Virus record (IMG/VR): IMGVR_UViG_3300020168_000026
Coordinates: 1 to 27,754 of that record
Origin: a virus
Lineage: Duplodnaviria > Caudoviricetes
DNA length: 27,754 nucleotides
Strand: one strand, 5' to 3'
Shown: positions 4,883 to 17,189 of the stretch, one piece after another
How the letters are laid out: each line of letters opens with the position of its first letter
Position numbering within the stretch: position 1 is the first letter of the stretch
The notes under the pieces: generated by a model
Told to the model about the DNA's origin: nothing
Database searches by the model: none
The model's input: only the letters and a program-made list of their open reading frames with translations
Position numbers and translations under genes: made by a program

Positions 4883-5095
4883 ATGACCAACGCCGACATC
4901 GCGACCCGAGACCTCATCGCCGCCATCCGCACCGCCGTTGCCGCGCCCAAGGGATGCGCCTTCAACTCGGTGAGCCGCTACATGGCCGAGGCGGACTACC
5001 TCCTCGCCAACACCGACCTCAACACGGACGCCGCGCGCCGTCGCGCCGGGAGCATCCGCCGCGCCGTGGAGACCAACGTCGCTCTCTACGCCTAA
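4883..5095 (+). CDS. small cassette protein (70 aa)
   Basis: ATG directly after the P1 SD. Confidence 0.8.
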   Translation: MTNADIATRDLIAAIRTAVAAPKGCAFNSVSRYMAEADYLLANTDLNTDAARRRAGSIRRAVETNVALYA

Positions 5096-5105
5096 CCACT
5101 CCAGC

Positions 5106-5132
5106 GCCCCGCCCGGGGCCTCGTACCGGGCA
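5106..5132 (+). ncRNA. 27-nt pseudoknot-like intergenic motif, copy a
   Basis: GCCCC GCCCGG GGC CTCGTA CCGGGC A. Confidence 0.6.
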
Positions 5133-5142
5133 AGGAGGAGAC

Positions 5143-5307
5143 ATGGACACCGCCACCGCTCGCGGAATCTTCCGCACCTACATCACCGAGGCCGCGTTCT
5201 ACGCCCGGTCCCTGCGCTCCCAGCGCAACCCCTCCACCCGCCTGTGGCTCGCCACGCGGGTCCACAAGTACCGGACCCTGGCCCGAGAGGCCGCGCGGGA
5301 CCTGTAG
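5143..5307 (+). CDS. small basic cassette protein (54 aa)
   Basis: SD AAGGAGGAG; MDTATARGIFRTYITEAAFYARSL... Confidence 0.75.
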   Translation: MDTATARGIFRTYITEAAFYARSLRSQRNPSTRLWLATRVHKYRTLAREAARDL

Positions 5308-5320
5308 GAGGGGCGGCTGA

Positions 5321-5433
5321 CCGCTACACGGCTCGCCTTTTTCAAAAATAGTTCGATATGCGCTTGCGCTGAGAATCACCCGGGCCTATAAATAGTCCAA
5401 CGGGGGGCAACGAAGCCCTAGAGGAGAGAGACC
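5321..5433 (+). promoter_or_regulatory. promoter cassette P2
   Basis: CCGCTACACGGCTCGCCTTT box; TTGCGC 5364 - 17 bp - TATAAA 5387; hairpin; SD GAGGAGAGAGA. Confidence 0.85.
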
Positions 5434-5736
5434 ATGTACCCCAGCTTGACCGGATACGACGCCTGGAAGACCGCGACCCCGCCCGAGGGCGCGTGCGAGC
5501 ACTGCGACCACGTCTACTGTCCCGAGGTGTGCGAGGTGTGCGGCGAGTGCCTCCACGCTGGAGACTGGACGGAGGTCCAGGGGCACGAGGTTTGCGCCTC
5601 GTGCGTCGAGGGCGGGTGCCCGACCCAGGACTACCAGCCGTGCGAGGTGTGCGGCGAGTGGGCCACCCTCAAGATCGGCTCCGTGACGATCTGCACCATG
5701 CCCGAGTGCGACACCCACAAGCGGCGGGAGGCTTGA
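5434..5736 (+). CDS. Cys-rich multi-zinc-finger protein (100 aa)
   Basis: Repeated CxxC (CEHC, CEVC twice, CASC); cassette SD. Confidence 0.8.
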   Translation: MYPSLTGYDAWKTATPPEGACEHCDHVYCPEVCEVCGECLHAGDWTEVQGHEVCASCVEGGCPTQDYQPCEVCGEWATLKIGSVTICTMPECDTHKRREA

Positions 5737-5738
5737 CC

Positions 5739-5924
5739 ATGAGCAACGAAAACCATCACCCACGCTGCGCCACCCTGATCGACAGCGTGCTCCGCTGCAC
5801 CTGCGCCCAGGAGGACGCCTGGGACGACAAGATGGCGGAGGAGGAGGAGATCCTTAGCTGGGTGCCCTGCGACTGCCATCGGGGGTGCGAGCGATGCGGC
5901 GGCGAAGGGTACGTCTACGAATGA
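5739..5924 (+). CDS. small Cys-rich protein (61 aa)
   Basis: ATG 5739 after GGGAGG; ends with CERCGGEG, a DnaJ-type zinc knuckle. Confidence 0.7.
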   Translation: MSNENHHPRCATLIDSVLRCTCAQEDAWDDKMAEEEEILSWVPCDCHRGCERCGGEGYVYE

Positions 5925-6295
5925 GCCGGGCGATCTTGACCAACCTGCGCCCCTTCGGGGGCTCCTTCCGAGCCACGGCCACCCTCCTCCCCGGAGGACG
6001 CCACGAGGTGGCCCTGGAGGCCCGAGCGGGGCGCGTGTTCCTGGCGAAACCATACCCCGAAGGGCTCGGGGGCTCGGGCTTGTACGACCTCTCCACGGCC
6101 CTCCACCGTCTCAGGCTGGACCCCTCGGACACGCGGCCCCGGTACGTCTGGGCTTGCGGACACGAAGAGCCGGACCGGTGGTCCGTGGTGGTGGACCTGG
6201 GGCGGAAGTGCCCCGGGTGCATGGCCGAGGACAAGACCCGAGAGGCGGGCGGACGGGATCTGTTCGGGGAGGGCGTGCGAGCCCTGCACGATTAG
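5921..6295 (+). CDS. hypothetical protein (124 aa)
   Basis: ATGA overlap with the upstream gene; CGH...CPGC zinc-ribbon-like pair. Confidence 0.7.
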   Translation: MSRAILTNLRPFGGSFRATATLLPGGRHEVALEARAGRVFLAKPYPEGLGGSGLYDLSTALHRLRLDPSDTRPRYVWACGHEEPDRWSVVVDLGRKCPGCMAEDKTREAGGRDLFGEGVRALHD

Positions 6296-6388
6296 AGCGC
6301 CCAGGACGCCGCCAGAGCGCGTTTCAGGGCTCGACCCTTGCCGGGGTATGCCTGGAGGTGGAAAGCGCACGAGAGCGGCTCTCAGGCG

Positions 6389-6496
6389 TCCCGGATATTT
6401 TCTTCTCTTTTTCTCTCTTTTCCACTTGCGCCGTGATGGGCGGGTCTAGTACAAATAGTCCAACGGCGGGACACAACGTCCCAGAGGAGAGAGACC
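6389..6496 (+). promoter_or_regulatory. promoter cassette P3
   Basis: T-tracts; TTGCGC 6426 - 18 bp - TACAAA 6450; hairpin GGGAC-ACAAC-GTCCC; SD GAGGAGAGAGA. Confidence 0.8.
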
Positions 6497-6745
6497 ATGA
6501 CCCACGAAGCCCGATACTCCATCCGCGGAACCAACGGACACAACGCTGACGATCTGACGCTTTACGAAGCGGCCAAGGCTCTGATCGCAGCGCGGAAGGA
6601 TGAGGCCCTGACCGACGCGAGCCACATCCGCCGCGGTGGCCGCCCGGTGGCTTTCTTCTGCGAGTGGCTGAACGTGGTACGCCCGATGTACAAGGCCCTC
6701 ACGGAGGAGGCCGAGGTCATCGCGGTGTGGGAGATGGGGAGCTAG
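6497..6745 (+). CDS. small cassette protein (82 aa)
   Basis: ATG after the P3 SD. Confidence 0.8.
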   Translation: MTHEARYSIRGTNGHNADDLTLYEAAKALIAARKDEALTDASHIRRGGRPVAFFCEWLNVVRPMYKALTEEAEVIAVWEMGS

Positions 6746-6767
6746 ATCGGACCGGGGGTTCCTGGGC

Positions 6768-7067
6768 TCACTTCGAGCCTCGGCACCCCTCGCGGACGGC
6801 CTCTCGGACCGTCTCCCGGAGCGGGACGCCGTGCTCTCGGGACCGCTGGATCAGCCTCTCAAGGTCGCGCGGATCTGCCAGGACGCCGAAGGCGACCTCC
6901 CGGATCAGGGTCTGCTCGGAGCACCGGGAGCCGGATCTCATGGCGGGGACACGGAGGCCCCTCTCACGGAGGAACGCCAGCGCGTCCGCGATCATGGCGT
7001 TCTCGTCGTCGGTCTGGCCCCGCTCCTGATCCGCCCCGTATAGCGTGAGTCTGATGTCTCGCTTCAT
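6768..7067 (-). CDS. hypothetical protein, possible regulator, probably leaderless (99 aa)
   Basis: Minus-strand TTGACC-17-TACATT ends 6 nt before ATG 7067; no SD. Confidence 0.6.
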   Translation of the reverse strand: MKRDIRLTLYGADQERGQTDDENAMIADALAFLRERGLRVPAMRSGSRCSEQTLIREVAFGVLADPRDLERLIQRSREHGVPLRETVREAVREGCRGSK

Positions 7068-7073
7068 GCGACA

Positions 7074-7124
7074 AATGTACAGCCCAACCCTTGACCGGTC
7101 AATGTGTGTCCCTGTACTGTACAC
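7074..7124. promoter_or_regulatory. back-to-back promoters sharing the palindrome TTGACCGGTCAA
   Basis: Palindrome at 7091-7102 gives a -35 on both strands; -10 TACATT (minus, 7079-7074) and TACTGT (plus, 7115-7120). Confidence 0.7.
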
Positions 7125-7151
7125 CCCGACCCGTGGAGGACCGAGACCCTG

Positions 7152-7427
7152 ATGGATGACGACGACCGGGAGAAGCTATCCGAGGCCCTGGGGAGATCCC
7201 GCGGATGCTCGATCACGCTTGCGCTCGATCCGCACGAGGCGGAGGCCCTCCGAGAGTGGCGGGACCGGTGCTGTATCGGGTGCGGCCACTTCTACGTGGG
7301 CGGGATCAACTGCTCGCGGTGTGGAGAGCCTGGGGAGCCCCTAGAGAGGCCCCAGGACGGCCAACGGTCGGACGCCACGGCCCTGGCCCTTGGGCTGGAG
7401 GTCATGGGGATCGGAGGGGACGGATGA
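7152..7427 (+). CDS. zinc-ribbon hypothetical protein (91 aa)
   Basis: SD GGAGGA; CIGC...CSRC. Confidence 0.7.
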   Translation: MDDDDREKLSEALGRSRGCSITLALDPHEAEALREWRDRCCIGCGHFYVGGINCSRCGEPGEPLERPQDGQRSDATALALGLEVMGIGGDG

Positions 7428-7687
7428 TCCCCCGGGACTGGATCAACCTGTGGCGGGACGAGGATCACATCGTCCTGGAGGCGGTGATCGAACTCGGCGG
7501 AGGTCCTCTCTTGGCGATGGAGGTAGCGGGCCACTGTGAGATCGAAGCGGAGCGAGTGTGGCAAGCCCTGAGACGGCTCGTCTGGCGGGGTGTCCTCCAG
7601 TACGGGCCAGCCCTGAGAAACCGCGCCCGGTGGGAGCTATCCCGCGAGACGCGGCGACGACTTGAGGAGATGGAGGAGAGAGCATGA
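7424..7687 (+). CDS. winged helix-turn-helix protein (87 aa)
   Basis: ATGA overlap; AMEVAGHCEIEAERVWQALRRLVWRGVL. Confidence 0.7.
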   Translation: MIPRDWINLWRDEDHIVLEAVIELGGGPLLAMEVAGHCEIEAERVWQALRRLVWRGVLQYGPALRNRARWELSRETRRRLEEMEERA

Positions 7688-7983
7688 GGCACGAAGCGAG
7701 GATCACCGTCTGCTCGGTCATGCGGGACCTGAGCATGGACGCGGGGAGCGACACCGGGAAGCGTGTCGCGTGGTCGGCGGGCTCCCGGGTGCGGGATATG
7801 TGGGAGGCGGAGCACGACCGACGCCCCGAGATGCGTCTGGTCCAGAAGACCAGCGGCAGCGGGACGCATGACAAGGCCGTCTATCCCGAGTCATGGCGGG
7901 GGCGGATCGAGGAGGCGATCTACACCGCCGAGGTGGAGGTAGGCGCGGTGCCTGATCCGCGTCAAGTGGGCTTGTTCGGGTGA
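7684..7983 (+). CDS. hypothetical protein with C-terminal QVGLF
   Basis: Overlapping start/stop codons at both ends; SD GGAGGAG. Confidence 0.75.
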   Translation: MRHEARITVCSVMRDLSMDAGSDTGKRVAWSAGSRVRDMWEAEHDRRPEMRLVQKTSGSGTHDKAVYPESWRGRIEEAIYTAEVEVGAVPDPRQVGLFG

Positions 7984-9125
7984 TGCTCCAGGCACACCAC
8001 GGCGATGGGCTCGCGATCTACCCGACGCTCCCCTCCGACGCCTACACGCTGATCGTCTCGGACGGCGCTTATGGGATCGGCGGGTTCCCAGGGGATCCGA
8101 AGTCCCCGAAGGGTCTGGCGGAGTGGTACCGGCCACACCTCGAAGCGTGGGACCGTCTAGCGGCCCCGTCGTCGTCGCTCTACTTCTGGTGTACCCCCGA
8201 GGGGTGCGCGCGGATGCTGCCGGTGGTTGAGGAGTACGGGTGGCGGTTCTACTCGTCGGTTCGGTGGCACAAGGGCATGGCGGCGCTTGCCGGTCGGCTT
8301 GACTCTGAGGCAATCCGAGGTTGGCCGGTATCGTCGGAAGACTGCTACTTCTTCGTCCGCGAAGCCGTGGATATCAGCGCGCTCGCGGCGCAAGGGGTCG
8401 CGCCAGGGCATGACGGACTCGCGCACAAGTCACTAATCGAAGCGGCGGGGGCGGACGAGCGGAACACGGTGAGGACGTTCCTCCGCGCGGAGTGGATGGA
8501 GCGCGCGGGGTTGACCATCGGAGACGCGACGGATCGCGCCTATCGTTCGTCGGCCTCGCACTACTTCACACGCTCCCAGTGGGCGTTCCCGACGTGGGAG
8601 GGGTTCTCAGCCCTTGCCGCCTACGCCCGCGAGCACGGACCACCGACCGAGCGCCCCTACCTCGTGACCGAGGACGTGTGGGCACGACGCGGCGGGCTCC
8701 GGGAGTCGTACGAGGCTCTCCGGGAGTCGTACGAGGCTCTCCGGGAGGAGTACGAGGCTCTCCGGGAGGAGTACGAGGCTCTCCGGGAGGAGTACGAGGC
8801 TCTCCGCTACCCCTTCACCCTCCCGCAAGGTGTAACTGACGTGTGGAGCGCGCCACCTGTTAGCGCCAAGCGGCGGCACTCATGCGCGAAGCGACCCGAG
8901 CACATCGAGCGGATCGTGAAGGCGAGCAGCCGCCCGGGGGATCGCGTTCTAGAGCCATTCGGCGGCGGGGCTCCGGTCTTGCGGGCGTGTCAGAAGTTGG
9001 GCCGGTCTTGCGATTCGATCGAGCGGGTGGAGGAGTGGCACCGCTGGGCTCTGGCGATCTTGGGAGATCACGGCGCGGTGGCCGAGCCTGGGATCCTCCC
9101 GGGCCAAGGGAGCCTGTTCGGATGA
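7980..9125 (+). CDS. N6A/N4C DNA methyltransferase (beta class) with inserted domain and heptad repeat
   Basis: Motif IV variant LIVSDGAY; C-terminal HSCAKRP..IERIVKASSRPGDRVLEPFGG. Confidence 0.85.
   Translation: MMLQAHHGDGLAIYPTLPSDAYTLIVSDGAYGIGGFPGDPKSPKGLAEWYRPHLEAWDRLAAPSSSLYFWCTPEGCARMLPVVEEYGWRFYSSVRWHKGMAALAGRLDSEAIRGWPVSSEDCYFFVREAVDISALAAQGVAPGHDGLAHKSLIEAAGADERNTVRTFLRAEWMERAGLTIGDATDRAYRSSASHYFTRSQWAFPTWEGFSALAAYAREHGPPTERPYLVTEDVWARRGGLRESYEALRESYEALREEYEALREEYEALREEYEALRYPFTLPQGVTDVWSAPPVSAKRRHSCAKRPEHIERIVKASSRPGDRVLEPFGGGAPVLRACQKLGRSCDSIERVEEWHRWALAILGDHGAVAEPGILPGQGSLFG
8697..8806 (+). repeat. 21-bp coding tandem repeat, 5.2 copies (LRE[S/E]YEA heptad)
   Basis: CTCCGGGAG(TCG/GAG)TACGAGGCT at 8697, 8718, 8739, 8760 and 8781. 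Confidence 0.95.
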
Positions 9126-9811
9126 TCCAGATCCGGCACACGGGCGCGGAAGACCTGATCGCATCGCTAGCTCCGGGGAGCGTCTCGGGCGTGATCGCAG
9201 ATCCGCCCTGGGAGTACGGCAACACCACCACCGGAGGGAGCGGGACATCGTCCGCCGCCCACCTGTACCAGACCGGGTCCGACGCCTGGATCGCCTCGGT
9301 CCTCGCCTCGTGCTGGCCCTTGTGCGGACCCTCCGCCTACCTCGCGATCTGGTGTACGTGGCCGAAGCTGTCCGAGTGGTTCGCCGTCCACCACCTGATC
9401 CCCTGGCGATACGTCACGGGCGGAGCGTGGACGAAGGACGGGGGCTTCGGGATGGGGTACCACCATGCCGGGGACTCGGAGATCTGGCTCCTGTACGTCA
9501 AGGGCTCCCCCAGGCCAGCGGACGGACGCCAGAGCAACGCGATCCACGCCCCCAGGCTCGGACACTCGGAGAAGCCCCAGGAGGCCCTCGATCTGCTCGT
9601 GCGGACCGTCGCCCCGGAGGGCGGGCTGATCCTCGATCCGTTCGCCGGGGAGAGCGCCTCCCTGGCCCGGTGCTGCCTCCGACTAGGCCGGGAGTATGTG
9701 GGGGCGGAGATCGACGCGGAGAGGCACCAGAGGGCGCTCAGGAGGCTCTCAGGCGAGAGCGCGGAGCAGGCGCGGATGAGAAACCAGATCGCGCTATTCG
9801 GGGGCACCTGA
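9122..9811 (+). CDS. MT-A70-like/beta-class adenine DNA methyltransferase (229 aa)
   Basis: ATG 9122 overlaps the upstream stop; VIADPPWEY, AIWCTWP, HSEKP, ILDPFAG, YVGAEID. Confidence 0.85.
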   Translation: MIQIRHTGAEDLIASLAPGSVSGVIADPPWEYGNTTTGGSGTSSAAHLYQTGSDAWIASVLASCWPLCGPSAYLAIWCTWPKLSEWFAVHHLIPWRYVTGGAWTKDGGFGMGYHHAGDSEIWLLYVKGSPRPADGRQSNAIHAPRLGHSEKPQEALDLLVRTVAPEGGLILDPFAGESASLARCCLRLGREYVGAEIDAERHQRALRRLSGESAEQARMRNQIALFGGT

Positions 9812-9841
9812 TCACACGCGAGCGGTGAGGAGTGTGGGCAC

Positions 9842-10366
9842 ATGGCAGGGAAGCCAGCGGAAGAGACAGTCACGCGGAGGCATAAGGTCCTCGCTCAGTA
9901 CCTCTCACCGGGAGGGCTCGGGAAGCACAACTCCGCCGAGGTGGCGCGGGCTCTCAGGGTCTCCGAGCGGACCCTATGGCATGACCTCAAGGTGGTGCGG
10001 GAGCAATGGGCCAAGAGCGGCGCTCCTGTCCACCCGGACGCGGCCACAGTCCACGCCAGGATCGGCGCGGCCCTGGATGTGGCGTGGGGGCTTGTCAGGG
10101 AGGGAGAAGACGCGGAGACGGCTCTGAAGGCCCTGGATCGGGTCTACAAGGGGATCGACCTCCAGGCGCGCGTCTCGGGCGTCTACGCCCCGGAGAAGGT
10201 GGAGCACACCGTAGGAGAGACGGCGGGGATCAACCTGACGCCGGAGGATCTGGCGTGGTTCGCGCACTGGCGGGAGCGGTGGGAGGAGCTATGCGAGAGG
10301 CGGGAGGCGGGGACGCTCACGGAGATGGAGCGCCACGCCCTGGACGTGTTCGAGGCGGGGTTGTGA
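9842..10366 (+). CDS. probable terminase small subunit (HTH)
   Basis: N-terminal HTH SAEVARALRVSERTLWHDL; C-terminal ARVSGVYAPEKVEHT typical of TerS. Confidence 0.65.
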   Translation: MAGKPAEETVTRRHKVLAQYLSPGGLGKHNSAEVARALRVSERTLWHDLKVVREQWAKSGAPVHPDAATVHARIGAALDVAWGLVREGEDAETALKALDRVYKGIDLQARVSGVYAPEKVEHTVGETAGINLTPEDLAWFAHWRERWEELCERREAGTLTEMERHALDVFEAGL

Positions 10367-11610
10367 GCGAGAGGTGTCCTCTCTTCGTCGAGCTATGCGC
10401 GGGGCTCGCGTCCGTCTCGCTCATGCTCCAGGGCGGCAAGTACGCGCGCCCGCCTGTCTCGCGGATGGGCAATAAGCACGGCTATGGGCTCGCGCTGCTC
10501 CGCGTCATGGGCCTGCGACCGGGGCAGGGTGCCGAGCGGTACTTGTGGGCAGAGCCCGACCCGGGATGCCGCGCCCTGCTCCACGCCTACACCGACCGCG
10601 AGTTGATGCAGGAGGCGGCGCGCATCATCCGGTCGTGGAAGGACGAGGAGCCGCGCGCGCTGTGGGAGCGGCTGCGGGCCGAGGGTCCGATACGGGTAGG
10701 GGAGGCGCGGGAGGTGGCGCGGCATTCAGCACTGGCGCAGTGGTCATACCGGAGGTGTGAGCCGGATAGCGGGTGGTGTTCGGTGCATGTGCCGCAAGGC
10801 GAGGAGGCCATCATTGAGGGCGGCAGGAAGCCGGCGCGGAACATTGCGACTGATTACGCAGCCGCCCCCACCCTCCCCGCCACCGTCACCCCCGACGCGC
10901 GAGCGGTAGACCCGAGGGAGGTGGCGCGCTTTAACCTTGTCGCTGCTTGGTGCGCGCAAGGCGACGTCAACGCGCCGGGCTATCGCGGCCCCGGTGGGAA
11001 CCTAGGCGACTTCGGCGGGCCGTTGCTTTGTGCGTCGTCAATGCCAAACCGCATGGAGTCGCCGCCGACCCTCCCCGCCACCGTCACGCCCGACGCGCGA
11101 GCGGTAGACCCGCGGGAGGTGGCGCGGTGGTCCCTGGGGGAAGCGTGGACGAACTCTGGGCGATACATGGGGCCTGACCGCCCCTCCTCGTGCCATGCAG
11201 AGGGATGGGTTGCAAGCATTGAGAGGGCTGGACTTGCGAGGAGGTTTGACGCCGCCCCAGAAGTTCCCGCCACCCAAGCCCCCGACGCGCGAGCCATCGA
11301 GCCCGCCGACCTCCCGCCCGGGACGGTCGTATTCATCGACCCTCCCTACGTCGGCACGACCGGCTATGGGAACGACCTCCCGCGCGAGGACGTGGTGGAG
11401 ATGGCGCGGAGGTGGTCCGAGGCGGGGGCGCGCGTCTACATCAGCGAGGCCGAGCCCATCGGGGCGCTCGTGGCCGAGGGCTGGCAAGCCGTGGAGATCA
11501 CGAGTCAGCGGGTGGGGCAGAGGAGGACGTTCAGCAAGCAACAGCGCGAGTGGGTCACGTGCTCGGAGGATCCAGCCTGGAGGCCACCGGTACAGGTCGG
11601 CCTTTTCTGA
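10363..11610 (+). CDS. Dam/D12-like (alpha class) DNA adenine methyltransferase with tandem variable modules (415 aa)
   Basis: GTG 10363 overlaps the upstream stop; motif I FVELCAG, PPVSRMGNK, YLWAEPD, motif IV VFIDPPY, VYISE. Confidence 0.8.
   Translation: MSERCPLFVELCAGLASVSLMLQGGKYARPPVSRMGNKHGYGLALLRVMGLRPGQGAERYLWAEPDPGCRALLHAYTDRELMQEAARIIRSWKDEEPRALWERLRAEGPIRVGEAREVARHSALAQWSYRRCEPDSGWCSVHVPQGEEAIIEGGRKPARNIATDYAAAPTLPATVTPDARAVDPREVARFNLVAAWCAQGDVNAPGYRGPGGNLGDFGGPLLCASSMPNRMESPPTLPATVTPDARAVDPREVARWSLGEAWTNSGRYMGPDRPSSCHAEGWVASIERAGLARRFDAAPEVPATQAPDARAIEPADLPPGTVVFIDPPYVGTTGYGNDLPREDVVEMARRWSEAGARVYISEAEPIGALVAEGWQAVEITSQRVGQRRTFSKQQREWVTCSEDPAWRPPVQVGLF
10870..11126 (+). repeat. 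59-bp direct repeat pair within the MTase (10870-10928, 11068-11126)
   Basis: 57/59 identical, encodes TLPATVTPDARAVDPREVAR; partial copies at 10708-10722 and 11266-11304. Confidence 0.95.
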
Positions 11611-11770
11611 GGCCCCGAGCGGGAGCGAAGGGGGCAAAAAGGGAGCCGCGAGGATCCTCTATACGACCTCGGGCGCAAGTCCGCGGAAACACTAGGATCA
11701 GGGGGGTCCGTTTTCTTGGCGTTGTGCGTACAAAACAGCACCCTCTACTGTACACACGCCAGGAGGTGCG

Positions 11771-12040
11771 ATGGTTGAGCGATTCCACATGCGAGTCTCC
11801 GAGGAGTGGCGGGAGGTCGTCTCAGGGGCGGCGGACCGTCTGGGGTGCTCTGTATCGGCCTATGTGGCCTCCGCGGCCCATGACGTGGCCGAGGGCCTAA
11901 CGATCCCCGCCGAGAGGCTCAGGGAGGCGATCTCGCTCATCGAGGACGCTCAGAGCTATTCGATGGGGAGGCGAGCACGGCGGACCCTGGACGACGTGAT
12001 CCACGTCCTCCTGGCGGCGATGGACGGCGAGCACCCCTAA
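11771..12040 (+). CDS. ribbon-helix-helix transcription regulator
   Basis: ERFHMRVSEEWREVVSGAADRLGCSVSAYV; SD AGGAGGT; upstream TTGTGC 11722 - 18 bp - TACTGT 11746. Confidence 0.75.
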   Translation: MVERFHMRVSEEWREVVSGAADRLGCSVSAYVASAAHDVAEGLTIPAERLREAISLIEDAQSYSMGRRARRTLDDVIHVLLAAMDGEHP

Positions 12041-12154
12041 ACGCTCGACGCCTCGCCTTTTTCGCTTTTCTTTCGTTTTCCGCTTGCGCCCGAATGTGGG
12101 GTAGTTCTATAACTAACTCATCGGCGGGACACACCGCCACGGAGGAGAGAGAAC
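12041..12154 (+). promoter_or_regulatory. promoter cassette P4
   Basis: ACGCTCGACGCCTCGCCTTT box; TTGCGC 12084 - 18 bp - TATAAC 12108; hairpin GGCGG-GACACA-CCGCC; SD GGAGGAGAGAGA. Confidence 0.85.
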
Positions 12155-12466
12155 ATGACCAACCCCGCCGCCAACGACATCGCGATCAGCGCCAACGAGT
12201 TCCGCACCATCTTCGTGAACGTGCTCAACGACTCCACCACCCTGGGGGATCTTCTCGCGGACTCCGCGACCTTCCGCCGCCAGCGCGGGTTCCACAACAA
12301 GGCGACCGGCGAGTATGTGGCCGCTAAGGACTTCACCCTCCGCGGGATCCGCAAGGGCGGCGCGGGTCACGTCGCGGCCTACCTCGGAATGACCGGGACC
12401 GACATCACCGGACGCCGTGTCTGGCTTCTCGACGGAGCCACGGTTACGGACCTCGGGATTGCCTAG
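12155..12466 (+). CDS. small cassette protein (103 aa)
   Basis: ATG after the P4 SD. Confidence 0.8.
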   Translation: MTNPAANDIAISANEFRTIFVNVLNDSTTLGDLLADSATFRRQRGFHNKATGEYVAAKDFTLRGIRKGGAGHVAAYLGMTGTDITGRRVWLLDGATVTDLGIA

Positions 12467-12477
12467 AGCCACCACGA

Positions 12478-12504
12478 GCCCACCCCGGGGCCTAGTACCG
12501 GGGA
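12478..12504 (+). ncRNA. 27-nt pseudoknot-like motif, copy b
   Basis: GCCCA CCCCGG GGC CTAGTA CCGGGG A. Confidence 0.6.
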
Positions 12505-12517
12505 CGGAGGAGAGACC

Positions 12518-12739
12518 ATGACCAACGCCGCCGACCTTCCCAACAAGTTCGCCACTGATAGCCGCCTGTTCGTGTGGGACGAGATGAACGCCATCCTCGT
12601 CCGCATCGACTCCCGCGGGACCGGTCGGTCCCTCTGCCACCGTTACGCCCCCATTGCCGCCACCCCCAACGGCCTGGACCTCGGGCTCGCCTTCTGGGAC
12701 ACCTGGGGGGAGGTTAAGCCCCGGGAGTGCCAGGGCTAG
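12518..12739 (+). CDS. small cassette protein (73 aa)
   Basis: SD GGAGGAGAG. Confidence 0.75.
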   Translation: MTNAADLPNKFATDSRLFVWDEMNAILVRIDSRGTGRSLCHRYAPIAATPNGLDLGLAFWDTWGEVKPRECQG

Positions 12740-12758
12740 CGGCCCGCCCACCACAAGC

Positions 12759-12783
12759 AAGCCCCGCCCCGAGCGGGGTTTTT
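12759..12783 (+). terminator. intrinsic terminator
   Basis: AAGCCCCGC-CCCGA-GCGGGGTTTTT. Confidence 0.8.
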
Positions 12784-12785
12784 GC

Positions 12786-12882
12786 TTTTTCTGCTCCTTT
12801 TCTCGCTTTTCCGCTTGCGAGTGCATTCGGCCCGGTCTATAAATAATCCAACAGCGGGGACGAGCCCCGGAGGAGAGAGACG
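12786..12882 (+). promoter_or_regulatory. promoter cassette P5
   Basis: TTGCGA 12815 - 17 bp - TATAAA 12838; hairpin CGGGG-ACGAG-CCCCG; SD GGAGGAGAGAGA. Confidence 0.85.
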
Positions 12883-13110
12883 ATGACCACCACCCGCGCC
12901 AACATCTCCACCGTCTCCTTCGCCACCCGCCCCGAGGCCGTGGAGTGGCTCGCGGTCAATGACTTCCGCCGCTTGCCTGTCAAGGGCTCGGAGCGTTGGT
13001 CCGCCACCGAGTGGAGCGACGACGGGCGGAAGGGCGTGACGTTCGCATCCGCAGCGGGTCGCGACGAGATCGGGAACGTTATCGCCTTCGACCTCGTCAC
13101 CTACTACTAG
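12883..13110 (+). CDS. small cassette protein (75 aa)
   Basis: ATG after the P5 SD. Confidence 0.8.
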   Translation: MTTTRANISTVSFATRPEAVEWLAVNDFRRLPVKGSERWSATEWSDDGRKGVTFASAAGRDEIGNVIAFDLVTYY

Positions 13111-13117
13111 CCAGAAC

Positions 13118-13144
13118 GCCCCGCCCGTGGCCTTGTACCGGGCA
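13118..13144 (+). ncRNA. 27-nt pseudoknot-like motif, copy c
   Basis: GCCCC GCCCGT GGC CTTGTA CCGGGC A (one stem mismatch). Confidence 0.55.
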
Positions 13145-13157
13145 GGAGGAGAGAGAG

Positions 13158-13424
13158 ATGAGCAAGCAGATCGGCAAGTGGGAGAACCTGGGGACCTTCG
13201 AGGGATGCACCGAGTGGAGCCTGGAGGTCGGCGGGGAGTGGGTCGCCAGGATCCAGCGGGAGCGCCCCACCCGCTGGCACGCCAACGGGGTCGGCGGACT
13301 CGTGCGGGACCGTGAGGCCCCCTGGGTCTGGTGCGCGGACGTGGACGGAGCCGACGTGGAGATCCCCAACGGGGCCACGGTCCGAGAGGCCAAGGCGATC
13401 GTCCTCCAGGCCCTGATCGCATGA
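13158..13424 (+). CDS. small Trp-rich cassette protein (88 aa)
   Basis: SD AGGAGGAGAG before ATG 13158; MSKQIGKWENLG... Confidence 0.8.
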   Translation: MSKQIGKWENLGTFEGCTEWSLEVGGEWVARIQRERPTRWHANGVGGLVRDREAPWVWCADVDGADVEIPNGATVREAKAIVLQALIA

Positions 13425-13445
13425 GCGCGACCCCAGACACCCATA

Positions 13446-13472
13446 GCCCCGCCCGGGGCCTTGTACCGGGCA
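13446..13472 (+). ncRNA. 27-nt pseudoknot-like motif, copy d
   Basis: GCCCC GCCCGG GGC CTTGTA CCGGGC A. Confidence 0.6.
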
Positions 13473-13482
13473 GGAGGAGACG

Positions 13483-13725
13483 ATGAGGACGAAGATCGAT
13501 CGGGGTTGGTATGAGGTGCGGGGCTCCCACGTCGTGGCGACCTTCCACTATGGCGGGGATCGGTGCCGAGACTGGATCGTGACCCAGGACGCGGAGCAAG
13601 CCAGGGCGATCCACCATGCCGCCCAGCACGCGGATCCGCTGGATCCCCGCTACCGGGTCCACCTCTGCGACGTGGACGGGGTCTTTAGCAGGCTCTCCGA
13701 CGCCACCGCGGCCATCCTGAGATGA
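13483..13725 (+). CDS. small cassette protein (80 aa)
   Basis: SD AGGAGGAG; stop overlaps the terL start. Confidence 0.75.
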   Translation: MRTKIDRGWYEVRGSHVVATFHYGGDRCRDWIVTQDAEQARAIHHAAQHADPLDPRYRVHLCDVDGVFSRLSDATAAILR

Positions 13726-15530
13726 GCGCGACACTAGACCGGATCCGAGCCCAGCGCGCGATCCTCGCGGCCCGAGAGGGCGACGGGGAGACCGCGCGGG
13801 CTCATGCGGCGGGGCTCTCTGGGGAGCCTCGGAGGCTCGTGGAGGAGGCCCTGGAGATGGAGGAGGCCCTGGGGAGCCTGTTCGGGTTCCTGCTGTATGT
13901 GTGGCCGGTCCTCCACGGCGCGCGGCCATTCCTCCCGGCTCCCTACGTGCGCGTGATGTGTGACTGGATCGAGGAGCGGATCACATACCGCCGCCCCAAC
14001 GGCTACCTCGCGGTCCCTCCCGGGTCCATGAAGTCCGTCGTGGGCTCGGTCCTCTCCGCGCCCTTCCGGTGGCTCCACGATCCGACGTGGACGTGCATCT
14101 GGCTCAGTGGCTCGGATCGGGTGGTCTCCCGGGACTCAGGCCGCGCCCGGTACATCATCCGCTCGGAGCGATACCAGCGGCTCCTCCGGTATCAGGTCCG
14201 AAGGCTCCGAGAGCTTGACCAGTGGAGGGGCGGACCCTGGGACGAGGTCCTCCAGGCGGGGGATCAGCCGTGGGCCTTCCGCGATGACAAGAATGAGCGC
14301 CTCTGGTTCGAGTTAAACAGCGGCGGGGGCCGTCAGTGCCTCAGCACCCGGAGCACCCAGATCACCGGCCTCCGTGGCGGGATGTGGGGCGTAGACGATG
14401 CCCTGGACGCCTCGGAGGTGATCCGCGGCTCGGAGGATCAGACCGCCCGCCGACTGCTAGAGGTGCGGAGCGTGATCGCGGGCCAGCTATGGAACCGGAT
14501 CGATGACCAGCGGGACGGGCATCACGCCCGCATGGTGATCGGCCAGAGGCTCCACGATCTGGACGTGGGAGGGTGGCTGATCCGCATGGGCTGGGATCAC
14601 CTCTGCCTCCCCGCCGAGTATGACCCCGAGCACCCCCACGCCTCGCCGTCAGATCCGCGATCTGAGCCCGGGGAGTTACTCCACCCGGTCCTCCTATCGT
14701 CTGAGATCCTAAACCGCCAGAGAGAGGTGATGGGGCCGTCACAGTACGCCGCCCAATACCGGCAGGACCCCCAGAAGGAGGGCGGGAACGAACTAGCGGA
14801 GGCCCTGGACGCTTGTCCCCGATTCTTCGAGCACCCGGCCACGATCACGATGGATCAGAGGTGGGCCAGCATTGACGCCACGTTCGGGACCACCAAGGCC
14901 ACCTCCTCCCGCGTGGCGATCGAGGCTATGGGACGCCAGGGCGCGATCCTGTACCTGTACGACCTCGACGCGGACGTGATGACGTGGCACGAGATGCGCC
15001 AGCGGTGTCTCGACTTCGCGCGGGCTCAGTCCCCGGGGCTGGACTCGTTCATCGTGGAGACCAAGGCCCTCGGCCCCGCCCTCGTGGAGGACCTTCAGAG
15101 GGTGATCCGAGGGGTGGAGGGGTTCTCCCCTGGGTCTCAGTCGAAGGAGAGCCGGATCGGCGTCCTCGCGGCCCGTATGCGCTCAGGGCAGGTCTACCTC
15201 CCGCACCCCGACGCCACATGGCTCCGCCGCGTCTCGGTGAGCTACTCGGAGATCGCCACCCTCCTCCCTATCGCCAGGGCGCGCGGGGACCGGTGGCCGG
15301 ATGCACTCGGGAAGGACTCGGGGCGCGTCTCCGTTCCGTGGGTCGTGATGTTCGAGGCTGAGTGCCGAGACGGGACCGGGCGGAACGACCTTCCCGACGC
15401 GGCGGCTCAGGGCGTGATCTGGGAGCAACGGAAGAGGCCGACCGAGCGGATCAAGCTGACGCCCGCGGCCCCGGAGATCGCGTCCCCGTGGTTTTCCGGG
15501 GATATGTGGGACGGATCTGGCGGGTTCTAA
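13722..15530 (+). CDS. terL: terminase large subunit
   Basis: Walker A-like YLAVPPGSMKS, ITGLRGG..VDD, VIGQRLHDLD, YAAQYRQDP; nuclease motifs SIDATF, IVETKALG, NDLPDA. Confidence 0.93.
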   Translation: MSATLDRIRAQRAILAAREGDGETARAHAAGLSGEPRRLVEEALEMEEALGSLFGFLLYVWPVLHGARPFLPAPYVRVMCDWIEERITYRRPNGYLAVPPGSMKSVVGSVLSAPFRWLHDPTWTCIWLSGSDRVVSRDSGRARYIIRSERYQRLLRYQVRRLRELDQWRGGPWDEVLQAGDQPWAFRDDKNERLWFELNSGGGRQCLSTRSTQITGLRGGMWGVDDALDASEVIRGSEDQTARRLLEVRSVIAGQLWNRIDDQRDGHHARMVIGQRLHDLDVGGWLIRMGWDHLCLPAEYDPEHPHASPSDPRSEPGELLHPVLLSSEILNRQREVMGPSQYAAQYRQDPQKEGGNELAEALDACPRFFEHPATITMDQRWASIDATFGTTKATSSRVAIEAMGRQGAILYLYDLDADVMTWHEMRQRCLDFARAQSPGLDSFIVETKALGPALVEDLQRVIRGVEGFSPGSQSKESRIGVLAARMRSGQVYLPHPDATWLRRVSVSYSEIATLLPIARARGDRWPDALGKDSGRVSVPWVVMFEAECRDGTGRNDLPDAAAQGVIWEQRKRPTERIKLTPAAPEIASPWFSGDMWDGSGGF

Positions 15531-15643
15531 CCGCTGTACGTCTCGCCTTTTCCGTCTTTTTTCGCTTTTCCGCTTGCGCCCGTGTGGGTGGTCATCTATA
15601 ACTAACTCATCGACGGGGACGAACCCCGCGGAGGAGAGAGACC
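15531..15643 (+). promoter_or_regulatory. promoter cassette P6
   Basis: CCGCTGTACGTCTCGCCTTT box; TTGCGC 15574 - 17 bp - TATAAC 15597; hairpin CGGGG-ACGAA-CCCCG; SD. Confidence 0.85.
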
Positions 15644-15928
15644 ATGAACATCGCCCGCACCATCCAGACCCAACTCGGCGGCGCTCTCGTGATGATGGGA
15701 GCCTTCAACCTGATCGACCACGGGGACGCCCTGTCCTTCAAGTTCCGCGGGAGCCGAAAGGCCAACTACCTCAAGATCACCCTGGCCGGTGATGACACCT
15801 ACACGATGGACTTCCTCAAGCTGGGCCGGAACTTCTCGATCAAGGAGGTGGCGTCCTTCTCCGGTGTCTACGCCTCGAACGTCAAGAGCGTGATCGAGTC
15901 CACCACGGGCCTCTACACGAGCCTCTAG
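15644..15928 (+). CDS. conserved phage protein of unknown function (94 aa)
   Basis: Pattern IARTIQTQLGG..MMGA...DDTYTMDF...GVY...TGLYTSL, recalled as widespread in phages; cassette SD. Confidence 0.85.
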   Translation: MNIARTIQTQLGGALVMMGAFNLIDHGDALSFKFRGSRKANYLKITLAGDDTYTMDFLKLGRNFSIKEVASFSGVYASNVKSVIESTTGLYTSL

Positions 15929-15949
15929 GCCACAAGCCCCGCTCCGATC

Positions 15950-15974
15950 AAGCCCCGCCCAGGCGGGGTTTTTT
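15950..15974 (+). terminator. intrinsic terminator
   Basis: AAGCCCCGC-CCAG-GCGGGGTTTTTT. Confidence 0.8.
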
Positions 15975-15984
15975 CGTTCTAGAA

Positions 15985-16099
15985 ACGCTGGACGCCTCGC
16001 CTTTCCGATATTTCTTCGCTTTTCCGCTTGCGCTCGATATCGCCCGCGTCTATAAATAGAGCATCGACGGGGCAACGACGCCCCAGGAGGAGAGAGACC
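15985..16099 (+). promoter_or_regulatory. promoter cassette P7
   Basis: ACGCTGGACGCCTCGCCTTT box; TTGCGC 16028 - 17 bp - TATAAA 16051; hairpin GGGGC-AACGAC-GCCCC; SD. Confidence 0.85.
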
Positions 16100-16327
16100 A
16101 TGACCGCACTTGACGCCGACCTCGCCCGCTTCGCCGCCTCTGACCTTCGCCTCGCCCGCAAGCAAGGGGACGCCCTCATCGGCCAGACCCGCCTCGGGAC
16201 GCTCTCGCTCCGCTACGACGCGGGCCACTACTCCCTGACCACCACGGGGATCGCGCCCACGGTGATCGCGGAGGGCAAGGCCGCGACGGTCAAAGCCGCG
16301 CTGGCCGACTGCTACCTGATCGACTAG
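16100..16327 (+). CDS. small cassette protein (75 aa)
   Basis: ATG 16100 after the P7 SD. Confidence 0.8.
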   Translation: MTALDADLARFAASDLRLARKQGDALIGQTRLGTLSLRYDAGHYSLTTTGIAPTVIAEGKAATVKAALADCYLID

Positions 16328-16336
16328 CAACCCAGA

Positions 16337-16363
16337 GCCCGCCCGGGGGCCTTGTACCCGGGA
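16337..16363 (+). ncRNA. 27-nt pseudoknot-like motif, copy e
   Basis: GCCCG CCCGGG GGC CTTGTA CCCGGG A. Confidence 0.6.
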
Positions 16364-16376
16364 GGAGGAGAGAGAG

Positions 16377-16544
16377 ATGAGCAACTGGTCTGTGATGACG
16401 TTCCGCGCCGGGAGCCGTGTCTGGCGCTCCCAGATCCGCCGCAACGGGCGGATCGTGCAAGAGATCGAGTACACCGGCACGAAGCGTGCCGCGGAGACTG
16501 ACGCCCGCGTGACGATGGAGGCCCTCGCTAGGGCCGAGAGCTAG
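16377..16544 (+). CDS. small cassette protein (55 aa, below the ORF-track cutoff)
   Basis: SD GGAGGAGGAG; MSNWSVMTFRAGSRVWRSQIRRNGRIVQEIEYTGTKRAAETDARVTMEALARAES. Confidence 0.75.
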   Translation: MSNWSVMTFRAGSRVWRSQIRRNGRIVQEIEYTGTKRAAETDARVTMEALARAES

Positions 16545-16554
16545 GGAGGGAGCC

Positions 16555-16752
16555 ATGAACAACCCCGGCCATTGCATCACCCCCGGAGGGGAACTCGGAG
16601 CGATCTGGACCTTCACCTCCAGGGCGGACGCCGCCGCGTGGCGGGAGGAGTTGAGGCGGGAGAACCCGGATCAACGTGTGCGGATCGTGCGGCGGACGCT
16701 GGCCGTGCTGGGGTCGTCCACGCCGATCTTCTGCCTCGTGATCGGAGGCTAA
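16555..16752 (+). CDS. small cassette protein (65 aa)
   Basis: SD GGGAGG; FTSRADAAAW motif. Confidence 0.7.
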   Translation: MNNPGHCITPGGELGAIWTFTSRADAAAWREELRRENPDQRVRIVRRTLAVLGSSTPIFCLVIGG

Positions 16753-16767
16753 AGAGGAGACGGAGAG

Positions 16768-16794
16768 GCCCTGGGGAAATCCTCGGGGCTTTTT
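16768..16794 (+). terminator. probable intrinsic terminator
   Basis: GCCCTGGGG-AAAT-CCTCGGGGC-TTTTT (two G-U pairs). Confidence 0.65.
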
Positions 16795-16889
16795 CTTTCG
16801 CTTTTTTTCGCTTTTCCGCTTGCGCCCAATATCGAGGGGGTCTATAAATAATCCAACGGGGGCACGGAGCACCCGGGAGGAGAGAGAAC
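16795..16889 (+). promoter_or_regulatory. promoter cassette P8
   Basis: TTGCGC 16820 - 17 bp - TATAAA 16843; hairpin with ACGGA loop; SD GGAGGAGAGAGA. Confidence 0.85.
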
Positions 16890-17147
16890 ATGACCACGAA
16901 CGCCGCCAACTACGCCGACCTCAACAACTGGTTCTCGATTCGCCGCGGCGATGGTCTCGATGTCCTGCGGTCCAAGGACAGCAAGTGCGAGATCCGTAGC
17001 TATCGTGACGAGGTCTCCGGCGAGCGGGTGTATGACCTGTACTACCAGCGGCCCGGATCGCTCGGTGCGATGGCTTTCGGTGACACCTACCAGAGCAGCC
17101 AGACGGCGGCGGAGGCCGCGCCCGGACTCTTCGAGGTGTCGCGCTAA
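16890..17147 (+). CDS. small cassette protein (85 aa)
   Basis: ATG after the P8 SD. Confidence 0.8.
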   Translation: MTTNAANYADLNNWFSIRRGDGLDVLRSKDSKCEIRSYRDEVSGERVYDLYYQRPGSLGAMAFGDTYQSSQTAAEAAPGLFEVSR

Positions 17148-17159
17148 GTCAACCCACGA

Positions 17160-17186
17160 GCCCCGCCCCGGGCCTAGTACGGGGCA
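17160..17186 (+). ncRNA. 27-nt pseudoknot-like motif, copy f
   Basis: GCCCC GCCCCG GGC CTAGTA CGGGGC A; not followed by an SD. Confidence 0.6.
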
Positions 17187-17189
17187 CCC

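Follow-up and report, generated by a model that had tools for sequence, protein, structure and literature searches.

Several short elements that precede genes in phage or bacterial messages form the background to the one described here, a 27-nucleotide H-type RNA pseudoknot present in six copies in a 27,754-base window (the whole stretch of DNA analyzed) of the viral contig IMGVR_UViG_3300020168_000026. The mRNA leader of T4 gene 32 contains an autoregulatory H-type pseudoknot that acts on translation initiation; it is a single copy serving one gene, followed by an unstructured tract before the start codon on which gp32 polymerises, and our motif bears no sequence likeness to it. The preQ1-I riboswitch aptamer, at ∼30 nucleotides the smallest known natural H-type pseudoknot element at a Shine–Dalgarno (SD) sequence, uses the SD to form its second helix and holds its ligand pocket at the helix junction. 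In our motif, by contrast, the SD lies outside the fold, the helices abut without junction nucleotides, and the downstream genes are unrelated ORFans. Integron attC sites are imperfect palindromes of ∼57–141 bp beside an integron integrase, whereas our motif measures 27 nucleotides and no integrase was seen among the 60 open reading frames (ORFs) scanned in the window.

Other comparisons come from phages. Cluster K mycobacteriophages carry short repeats, all in one orientation, at the translation starts of mostly non-structural genes. The start-associated sequence (SAS) of these phages, 13 bp long (GGGATAGGAGCCC), overlaps the SD and is found in 11–19 copies in one phage cluster (Pope et al. 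2011, PMC3203893); half of the SAS copies have an inverted repeat just upstream, and a role in translation initiation is suspected. The arms of the extended SAS (ESAS) are imperfect, 17 bp long and separated by a variable spacer of 4–13 bp, with a consensus specific to each sub-cluster. Our motif differs in having a freely covarying 6-bp stem, a fixed 9-nucleotide loop and a crossing second helix, and in being spread over contigs of 38–70% G+C, usually with one or two copies per genome; it has neither the 13-bp consensus at the SD nor the 17-bp inverted repeats. PeSL cassettes of T4-type phages (Arbiol et al. 2010, PMC2839356) are intergenic elements of ∼100 bp that extend from stop codon to SD in front of ORFans, contain a strong sigma-70 promoter and a GC-rich stem-loop that terminates transcription, and lie at insertion, deletion and replacement joints between related phages. 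Our motif likewise precedes ORFans and sits at joints between related phages. However, PeSL stem-loops have no conserved loop or pseudoknot, while the window copies have no sigma-70-type promoter and no U-tract, and only 7–21 nucleotides separate the stop codon from the motif. Finally, clustered hammerhead ribozymes occupy intercistronic gaps and flank small accessory genes of phages and prophages (Perreault et al. 2011, PMC3088659). Our motif is similarly a small structured RNA of phage intercistronic gaps, and the two co-occur in at least three contigs, but it lacks the hammerhead core and matches no ribozyme model.

The motif consists of helix S1 (3 bp, positions 1–3 with 12–14), a loop 1 of 2 nucleotides, helix S2 (6 bp, positions 6–11 with 21–26), no nucleotides between the helices, and a loop 3 of 6 nucleotides, C-U-N-G-U-A. 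The 5′ strand of S2 lies between the two strands of S1, which is the crossing order of an H-type pseudoknot. The original prediction placed six copies at 5106, 12478, 13118, 13446, 16337 and 17160. A search of the window for GCCC-N7-GGCCTNGTA-N6-A, with up to 2 mismatches allowed, returned exactly these six, all on the + strand and each with 0 mismatches; 100 dinucleotide-preserving shuffles of the window gave a mean of 1.05 matches and a maximum of 3, so that six were reached in 0/100. A covariance model run with filters off recovered the same six at 46–52 bits, the next match scoring 13 bits, and no further copy was found elsewhere in the complete 44,013-bp genome. The copies, their flanking signals and the ORFs that follow them are listed here.

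5106–5132, + strand: pseudoknot copy 1, 52.4 bits, S2 GCCCGG/CCGGGC, loop 3 CUCGUA; S1 pairs 5106–5108 with 5117–5119 and S2 pairs 5111–5116 with 5126–5131; TAA at 5093–5095, 10 nucleotides upstream; GGAGG at 5134–5138
5143–5307, + strand: 54-codon ORF led by copy 1 (ATG at 5143), no PHROG or Pfam family
12478–12504, + strand: pseudoknot copy 2, 48.2 bits, S2 CCCCGG/CCGGGG, loop 3 CUAGUA; TAG at 12464–12466, 11 nucleotides upstream; GGAGG at 12506–12510
12518–12739, + strand: 73-codon ORF behind copy 2; an ordinary terminator follows at 12759–12781
13118–13144, + strand: pseudoknot copy 3, 47.5 bits, S2 GCCCGU/CCGGGC with one U.C mismatch; TAG at 13108–13110, 7 nucleotides upstream; GGAGG at 13145–13149
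13158–13424, + strand: 88-codon ORF led by copy 3
13446–13472, + strand: pseudoknot copy 4, 51.6 bits, S2 GCCCGG/CCGGGC; TGA at 13422–13424, 21 nucleotides upstream; GGAGG at 13473–13477
13483–13725, + strand: 80-codon ORF behind copy 4; it overlaps the first bases of the large terminase gene (13722–15530)
16337–16363, + strand: pseudoknot copy 5, 50.4 bits, S2 CCCGGG/CCCGGG; TAG at 16325–16327, 9 nucleotides upstream; GGAGG at 16364–16368
16377–16544, + strand: 55-codon ORF led by copy 5
17160–17186, + strand: pseudoknot copy 6, 46 bits, S2 GCCCCG/CGGGGC; TAA at 17145–17147, 12 nucleotides upstream; cccTTG after the motif, no SD
17190–21014, + strand: 1274-codon portal-fusion ORF; its first in-frame start, TTG at 17190, lies 3 nucleotides past copy 6 and has no SD

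The spacing had been described accurately: the gaps from stop codon to copy are, in order, 10, 11, 7, 21, 9 and 12 nucleotides, and in five copies GGAGG follows the motif at 0–1 nucleotides and is itself followed by ATG. The sixth (17160) has no SD, and the sole SD-like run there (GGGG) sits inside the 3′ strand of S2. The stem variants quoted at the outset are also correct. A full 6-bp stem is present in five copies, but the copy at 13118 has a U.C at the loop-proximal pair and therefore only 5/6 pairs.

The motif is widespread, occurring as 99 distinct copies at 80 loci on viral and metagenome contigs. Pattern scans located it in further viral contigs as well as in 68 metagenome stretches; among the metagenome matches, all six stem pairs were present in 62 of 71 distinct sequences, although the pattern left 4/6 pairs free. 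A covariance model (R1) built from ten copies gave 101 matches in 269,753 bases, of which the 87 best (E < 1.2e-4) were kept, leaving 76 sequences after removal of duplicates. Two further scans of viral sequences, in which positions 1–3, 5, 11, 12–14, 17 and 21 were free and no SD was demanded, gave 49 distinct matches. From these, 14 matches classed as chance and four variants with a 1-nucleotide loop 1 were dropped, and the final alignment holds 101 rows (99 distinct, 80 loci) with G+C of 0.38–0.70 and 28 different stem pairs. Elsewhere, one or two copies per genome is the rule: of two complete genomes, that of 44.8 kb has 1 and that of 82.5 kb has 2. Six copies in one genome is unusual. Another locus (L121:96–640) holds four copies within ∼550 nucleotides, between duplicated mini-ORFs of 40–67 codons, and looks like a local cassette duplication.

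For bacterial and archaeal genomes, the SD-bearing pattern gave 45 listed distinct matches, 44 of which have only 0–4 stem pairs, as chance predicts; the sole listed match with 6/6 pairs (L060) lies in a Saccharibacteria contig of a metagenome-assembled genome (MAG). The same phage's copies also occur in a MAG labelled Chitinophagaceae, so these genomes give no host assignment. Four contigs of the latter MAG are involved: L051–L053 share the motif spacing of the window (4 matches), and L018 has a motif context identical to that of a viral contig (L003/L010), and all are binned in a bacterial MAG. Their presence there is probably a binning artefact and no clue to the host.

The absence of a known family, supposed at the outset, was borne out by Rfam 15, which gave no match at gathering scores across the whole window; within 12400–13560, where three copies lie, none of them was matched even at E up to 10. 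BLAST searches of 50,697 records of isolated phages with two 40-nucleotide queries gave a best E of ∼7, the search being insensitive for a motif this short. Intergenic matches in Klebsiella phage 6993 and Enterobacter phage vB_ExiM_F1M1E proved to be plain GGCCCC...GGGGCC hairpins and were rejected. A full-text search of the literature turned up no description of the motif. The text of PMC10690425 mentions the T4 gene 32 leader pseudoknot and does not mention our motif, and four of the contig numbers had 0 occurrences in its supplements, part of which are unsearchable; the 10,006 candidate viral RNAs of that study may include the motif.

Covariation supports both helices. Across the 99 distinct copies, 98.5% of S2 cells are paired, with double changes at 5/6 pairs and 28 stem classes, so that the stem covariation first noticed in six copies is massive. 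For S1, 100% of cells are paired and double changes occur at 2/3 pairs. The predicted pairing of the 5′ GCC with the loop GGC changes on both sides in relatives: it reads GCG/CGC in two sequences with different stems and flanks (L162 and L191; C3–G12 becomes G–C) and UCC/GGA in one lineage (L144, L164 and L178; G1–C14 becomes U–A in 3 sequences), which was counted as a member on the strength of the rest of the motif. It is broken in no credible member. The whole-structure covariation score was 0.341, compared to 0.059 in shuffles, and was reached by 0/500; in controls in which the partners were slid by 1–3 columns, only 21–48% of cells were paired. The structural reading of the original prediction therefore holds. 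The motif is a 27-nucleotide H-type RNA pseudoknot, with compensatory changes in both helices.

The S1 variants arose in the scans that left positions 1–3 and 12–14 free, and the 49 matches of these scans offer a further view of S1. It is complementary in register in 31, complementary with a 1-nucleotide loop 1 in 4 (L161, L167, L169 and L172, where GCC lies one base nearer the stem), and neither in 14. None of these 14 is followed by an SD and start, and the 11–21 pair is likewise missing from 9. Conversely, 23 matches have an SD plus start codon, and S1 is in register in 21 of these and combined with a 1-nucleotide loop 1 in 2. The two-by-two table for this criterion, which is independent of S1, reads 21, 2, 10 and 16. 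One dropped sequence (L151) has the full loop and stem with only 2/3 S1 pairs and without an SD; this could be either a coincidence within coding sequence or a counter-example.

In S2, G.U cells number 15 and A.C cells 3, and every copy is sense with respect to its flanking ORFs. The excess of G.U over A.C argues that selection for the fold acts on the sense strand. Of the nucleotides that lie in neither helix, C4, C15, U16, G18, U19, A20 and A27 are near-invariant, and the motif has ∼14 near-invariant nucleotides in all. Position 17 varies freely but is almost never G, with U in 44, C in 42, A in 12 and G in 1 of the 99 copies. Just upstream, position −2 is G in 60 of 76 copies and positions −13 to −3 are G-poor. 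Variants include 7-bp stems (L072, L098, L128) and replacement of C15 by U or A. By general stereochemical rules, a loop 1 of 2 nucleotides across a 6–7-bp deep groove and a loop 3 of 6 nucleotides across a 3-bp shallow groove are presumably feasible spans.

The position of the motif is fixed: a stop codon lies a few bases before it, and an SD and start codon follow it directly. In a sample drawn blind to the SD, 25 of 35 copies have a purine SD core that begins 0–4 nucleotides after A27, and then a start codon; in the SD-biased sample, an SD lies at 0–3 nucleotides in 74 of 77 copies, and the gap from stop codon to motif is 7–13 nucleotides in 46 of 77. The downstream ORFs are small, with a median of 76 amino acids over 68 complete ORFs (≤109 in 55), and most belong to no family (57/67 by PHROG, 62/72 by Pfam). 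The few family matches are mixed: NikA-like, helix-turn-helix, Gp157 or Mu Gam-like, and one IS1595 transposase. No common protein family was present in more than 5 of the 65 sources compared, the loci being mostly short.

Comparison with relatives shows what travels with the motif. When contigs of four runs were aligned to 12000–17500, joints or loose contig ends of relatives fell just upstream of the motif, at 12470, 13118, 13438–13448 and 17158–17160, and just past the start codon, at 12521, 12888 and 13160, while none was listed between motif and start codon. At copy 2, one relative retains 12470–12521 with both flanking genes replaced. Contigs of relatives have loose ends at 13118 and 13160 for copy 3, joints of three runs end at 13438–13445 for copy 4, and joints end at 17158 and 17160 for copy 6. 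These joint positions, together with the retention of 12470–12521, identify pseudoknot, SD and start codon as the conserved unit. They also bear out the proposal that the motif links cassette genes, since the joints fall at copies and small ORFans flank them.

The tight spacing to the SD, the places at which joints fall and the SD release predicted for copies whose positions 1–5 are engaged elsewhere lead us to favor, tentatively, a reading in which the motif is a portable leader for translation initiation at the downstream gene and also insulates it. With positions 1–5 barred from pairing, the predicted median cost of opening the SD falls from 2.49 to 0.89 kcal/mol (73 copies). The distance from stop codon to fold would be large enough for a ribosome to terminate without having to melt the fold. 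The GCC–loop pairing would occupy a C-rich 5′ strand otherwise able to pair with GGAGG and would leave the SD single-stranded at the foot of the fold, whichever gene lies upstream; with the SD kept single-stranded, the downstream small gene would be translated independently of its context. The near-invariant loop 3, C4, A27 and G−2 could be engaged in tertiary contacts or recognized by some conserved partner, the 30S subunit perhaps, and the ∼45-nucleotide island of pseudoknot, SD and start codon could also be a patch of homology at which phages swap small genes. The original prediction had offered a menu of functions, without claiming any, and these can only be ranked: a role in downstream translation fits best, a stabilising or processing role is possible, no evidence was found for an antiterminator, and a folded single-stranded DNA site for cassette capture is disfavored.

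A number of observations weigh against the leader–insulator reading. An insulator needs no invariant loop, and the strict conservation of C15, U16, G18, U19 and A20 is unexplained by it. Some copies have no SD after the motif (copy 6, L148, L152/L156 and L172), three copies with a U-tract have their SD 13 nucleotides further on, and some are directly followed by a hammerhead (L166, L008) or a U-tract (L178, L152). Nearest-neighbor folds of 75–91-nucleotide stretches around the six window copies are not more stable than shuffles (z −0.32 to 0.93), and the conserved stem is absent from the minimum-energy fold in 22 of 73 family members. Covariation of S1 amounts to about three events in five sequences; the 14 matches classed as chance were told from members partly by context, and an open-frame test (144 nucleotides) failed to separate the two. 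The RNA run X24, as assembled contigs, covers only ORF interiors and says nothing on RNA ends.

Because insulation alone does not account for the invariant loop, two other explanations are serious rivals. One, which is possible though we think it unlikely, is that the fold punctuates the message, blocking exonucleases or marking a cut after the stop codon and so dividing the mRNA into gene-sized stable units. It draws on the following hammerhead/pseudoknot neighborhoods in intercistronic gaps.

L076, 459–536: hammerhead at 481–536 (E 5.8e-6), following a motif relative whose loop is a UUCG tetraloop
L076, 745–824: second hammerhead-like core, ending 11 nucleotides before a full copy
L166, 58–138: hammerhead at 81–138 (E 0.0035) that begins within the motif's last bases, with a predicted cut 4 nucleotides past the motif
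L103, 199–265: type II hammerhead, 37.9 bits against a gathering score of 37
L008, 834–905: hammerhead-like core, by pattern only

Hammerheads in these slots, and U-tracts directly after some copies or variants (L178, L152; L096 variants), locate the fold at the upstream RNA's 3′ end, which keeps the punctuation rival alive; hammerheads flanking small phage genes are, moreover, documented (PMC3088659). Yet mosaic joints keep the motif with the downstream start and not with the upstream gene end, a 3′ cap would not need tight SD spacing, and the window has 0 matches to the hammerhead core (CUGANGA ... GAAA), its small gene units ending in ordinary terminators. A factor-controlled translational switch is an only slightly weaker possibility. 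Here, the 5′ GCCC(C) would pair either with the loop GGC, freeing the SD, or with the GG..GG of the SD, masking it in an extended hairpin, and a conserved protein, RNA or ribosome that reads the invariant C-U-N-G-U-A, which we take to be a YUNR U-turn signature, would tip the balance. In the minimum-energy fold of 45 of 73 copies, at least two of positions 1–5 are indeed paired with the SD region, as are 5′ positions in copies 1, 3, 4 and 5 of the window. The almost invariant loop positions 15, 16, 18, 19 and 20 around a free 17, kept constant across contigs of 38–70% G+C that share no protein, would fit a universal partner. However, the masking helix is weak (∼1.6 kcal/mol), CCCC is an imperfect anti-SD, and the alternative helix is beyond comparative test, as the SD cannot covary. 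Nor is there a candidate partner: no protein family recurs widely enough among the sources, the phage protein proposed in the original prediction was not found, and the sole RNA-related match in the window is a weak one to PHROG ‘RNase E’ (9842–10366, E 3.2e-7).

The remaining explanations carry less weight. That the motif acts at the DNA level, as a short homology patch or folded single-strand site for small-cassette exchange of the kind proposed for PeSL elements and lambdoid boundary sequences, seems quite improbable, even though joints with relatives gather at the copies, diverse ORFans flank them, an annealing protein of the ERF family is encoded by the phage (487–1140, E 1.3e-19), and the PeSL elements offer a precedent (PMC2839356). 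A covarying helix, fixed loop, crossing second helix and fixed SD distance are RNA features, as is the excess of G.U over A.C; most other genomes have only one or two copies, and the 60 ORFs scanned, all from the window and none from the other 16 kb of the genome, include neither an integrase nor an HUH/Y1 enzyme. Least probable of all is a new self-cleaving ribozyme of very small size, to which only the company of hammerheads points. The shared intercistronic slots and the ∼14 near-invariant nucleotides in a compact pseudoknot would suit putative self-cleavage, but the motif matches no ribozyme family and would be redundant beside the hammerheads of L166 and L076. All known natural self-cleaving classes are well above 27 nucleotides. 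It also seems improbable, if slightly less so than exchange at the DNA level, that the loop is a molecular mimic through which messages of phages with very different hosts recruit one universal translation component, which would make the pseudoknot a host-independent, factor-read switch and the smallest of its kind.

Some resemblances bear on such mimicry. The loop with U at its free position, GGCCUUGUA, occurs once in E. coli 16S rRNA (1386–1394; L132:1545–1553), in the universally conserved 3′ strand of helix 28, and shuffles of the 1.9-kb 16S locus contain a match in 7/200. In the window, the corresponding loop sites are 5117–5125 and the five other loops. C-U-U-G-U-A is also the sequence of anticodon loop positions 32–37 of E. 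coli tRNA-Thr(UGU), and the E. coli thrS leader has a UUCGUGU-type loop 10 nucleotides before its SD, which we take to be operator domain 2. The motif recalls operator domain 2 and the tRNA-Thr anticodon arm in being a hairpin just before an SD with C-U-N-G-U-A in its loop and the free position at the wobble site. In contrast to the tRNA-Thr arm, the loop of the motif has 9 nucleotides, and the first three are paired to the 5′ strand. Strict mimicry of either 16S rRNA or tRNA-Thr is made less likely by position 17, at which only 44 of 99 copies have U and 1 has G. Mimicry of tRNA-Thr is doubtful because G is found at position 17 in 1/99 and A in 12/99, though GGU is a normal Thr anticodon and AGU is not known to be one.

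Other candidate functions were rejected. Two exact antisense 9-mers of the loop in the window (6689 and 24936, one of them within the capsid gene) were judged to be probable chance matches and not a trans-acting RNA. Pairing of the SD with the hairpin loop was rejected by geometry, there being no linker to span S2. The distance from the stop codon resembles that of retroviral readthrough knots. As for programmed frameshifting or readthrough, the readthrough frame of copy 1 misses the next gene, and no slippery sites precede the six stop codons. A CRISPR-repeat mimic (Racr) was judged improbable for want of array spacing and of apparent likeness to known repeat types.

The motif would be a new, very small and widespread family of structured RNA in phages, with clean covariation in both helices and an almost invariant loop that calls for a partner or a tertiary fold. 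It offers a testable handle on how phages express small, swappable accessory genes regardless of their neighbors, and on where these are exchanged, and improves start-codon calls for tiny phage ORFs. Should the motif insulate ribosome-binding sites, it would be a natural 27-nucleotide counterpart of the engineered leader insulators of synthetic biology.

The window also contains ordinary transcription signals. Three near-identical intrinsic terminators lie on the + strand at 12759–12781, 15950–15971 and 16762–16795, each of the form AAGCCCCGCCC...GGGGTTT plus a T-run. They are hairpins separate from the motif, and each ends a small gene unit in the region of the terminase and portal genes, a layout like that of morons. 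Weak Rfam matches to isrK and to leader-like families at 12718–12791 correspond to the first of these terminators. No window copy is itself a sigma-70 promoter or intrinsic terminator, as none is among the promoter-like or terminator-like sites; the only promoter-like site in 4900–17400 is on the other strand at ∼7100, and none coincides with a copy. In L096, which also has a canonical copy, two hairpins (2405–2431 and 2617–2643) with the loop GGCUUCGUA and a 7-bp stem are followed by U-tracts, and this loop is apparently used in terminator-like hairpins as well.

The window (G+C ∼67%) belongs to a viral contig of 44,013 bp that has direct terminal repeats and is rated 100% complete. No close isolated phage was found for it at the DNA level, and the public runs that contain the phage are salt-marsh, lagoon and marine metagenomes. 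The left end encodes, on the − strand, a protein with a weak match to Gp157 and the annealing protein, and the + strand encodes a RepO-like protein (weak match), DnaB, two DNA methylases and many small ORFs, followed downstream by the 1274-residue portal fusion, a Mu gpI-type protease and the major capsid protein. Two of these genes are placed as follows.

487–1140, − strand: ERF-family annealing protein, left end of the window (E as given above)
13722–15530, + strand: large terminase gene, 28% identity to Aeromonas phage TerL, E 2e-32

The portal-fusion ORF (17190–21014) comprises a Mu-type portal region, a DUF5824 stretch, a PHROG 2859 region and a C-terminal stretch like a head-maturation protease. 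The product of 9842–10366, which carries the sole RNA-related label in the window, is a 174-residue protein whose weak match is to PHROG 645, and it belongs to no Pfam family. Lastly, a 9-mer (AGCCTCGTA as read on the − strand) recurs five times with an exact spacing of 21 nucleotides at 8709–8801, within the methylase ORF 7980–9125. Because Pfam reports a leucine-zipper or ZapB-like coiled coil there, this repeat is a 7-residue tandem repeat in the methylase protein.

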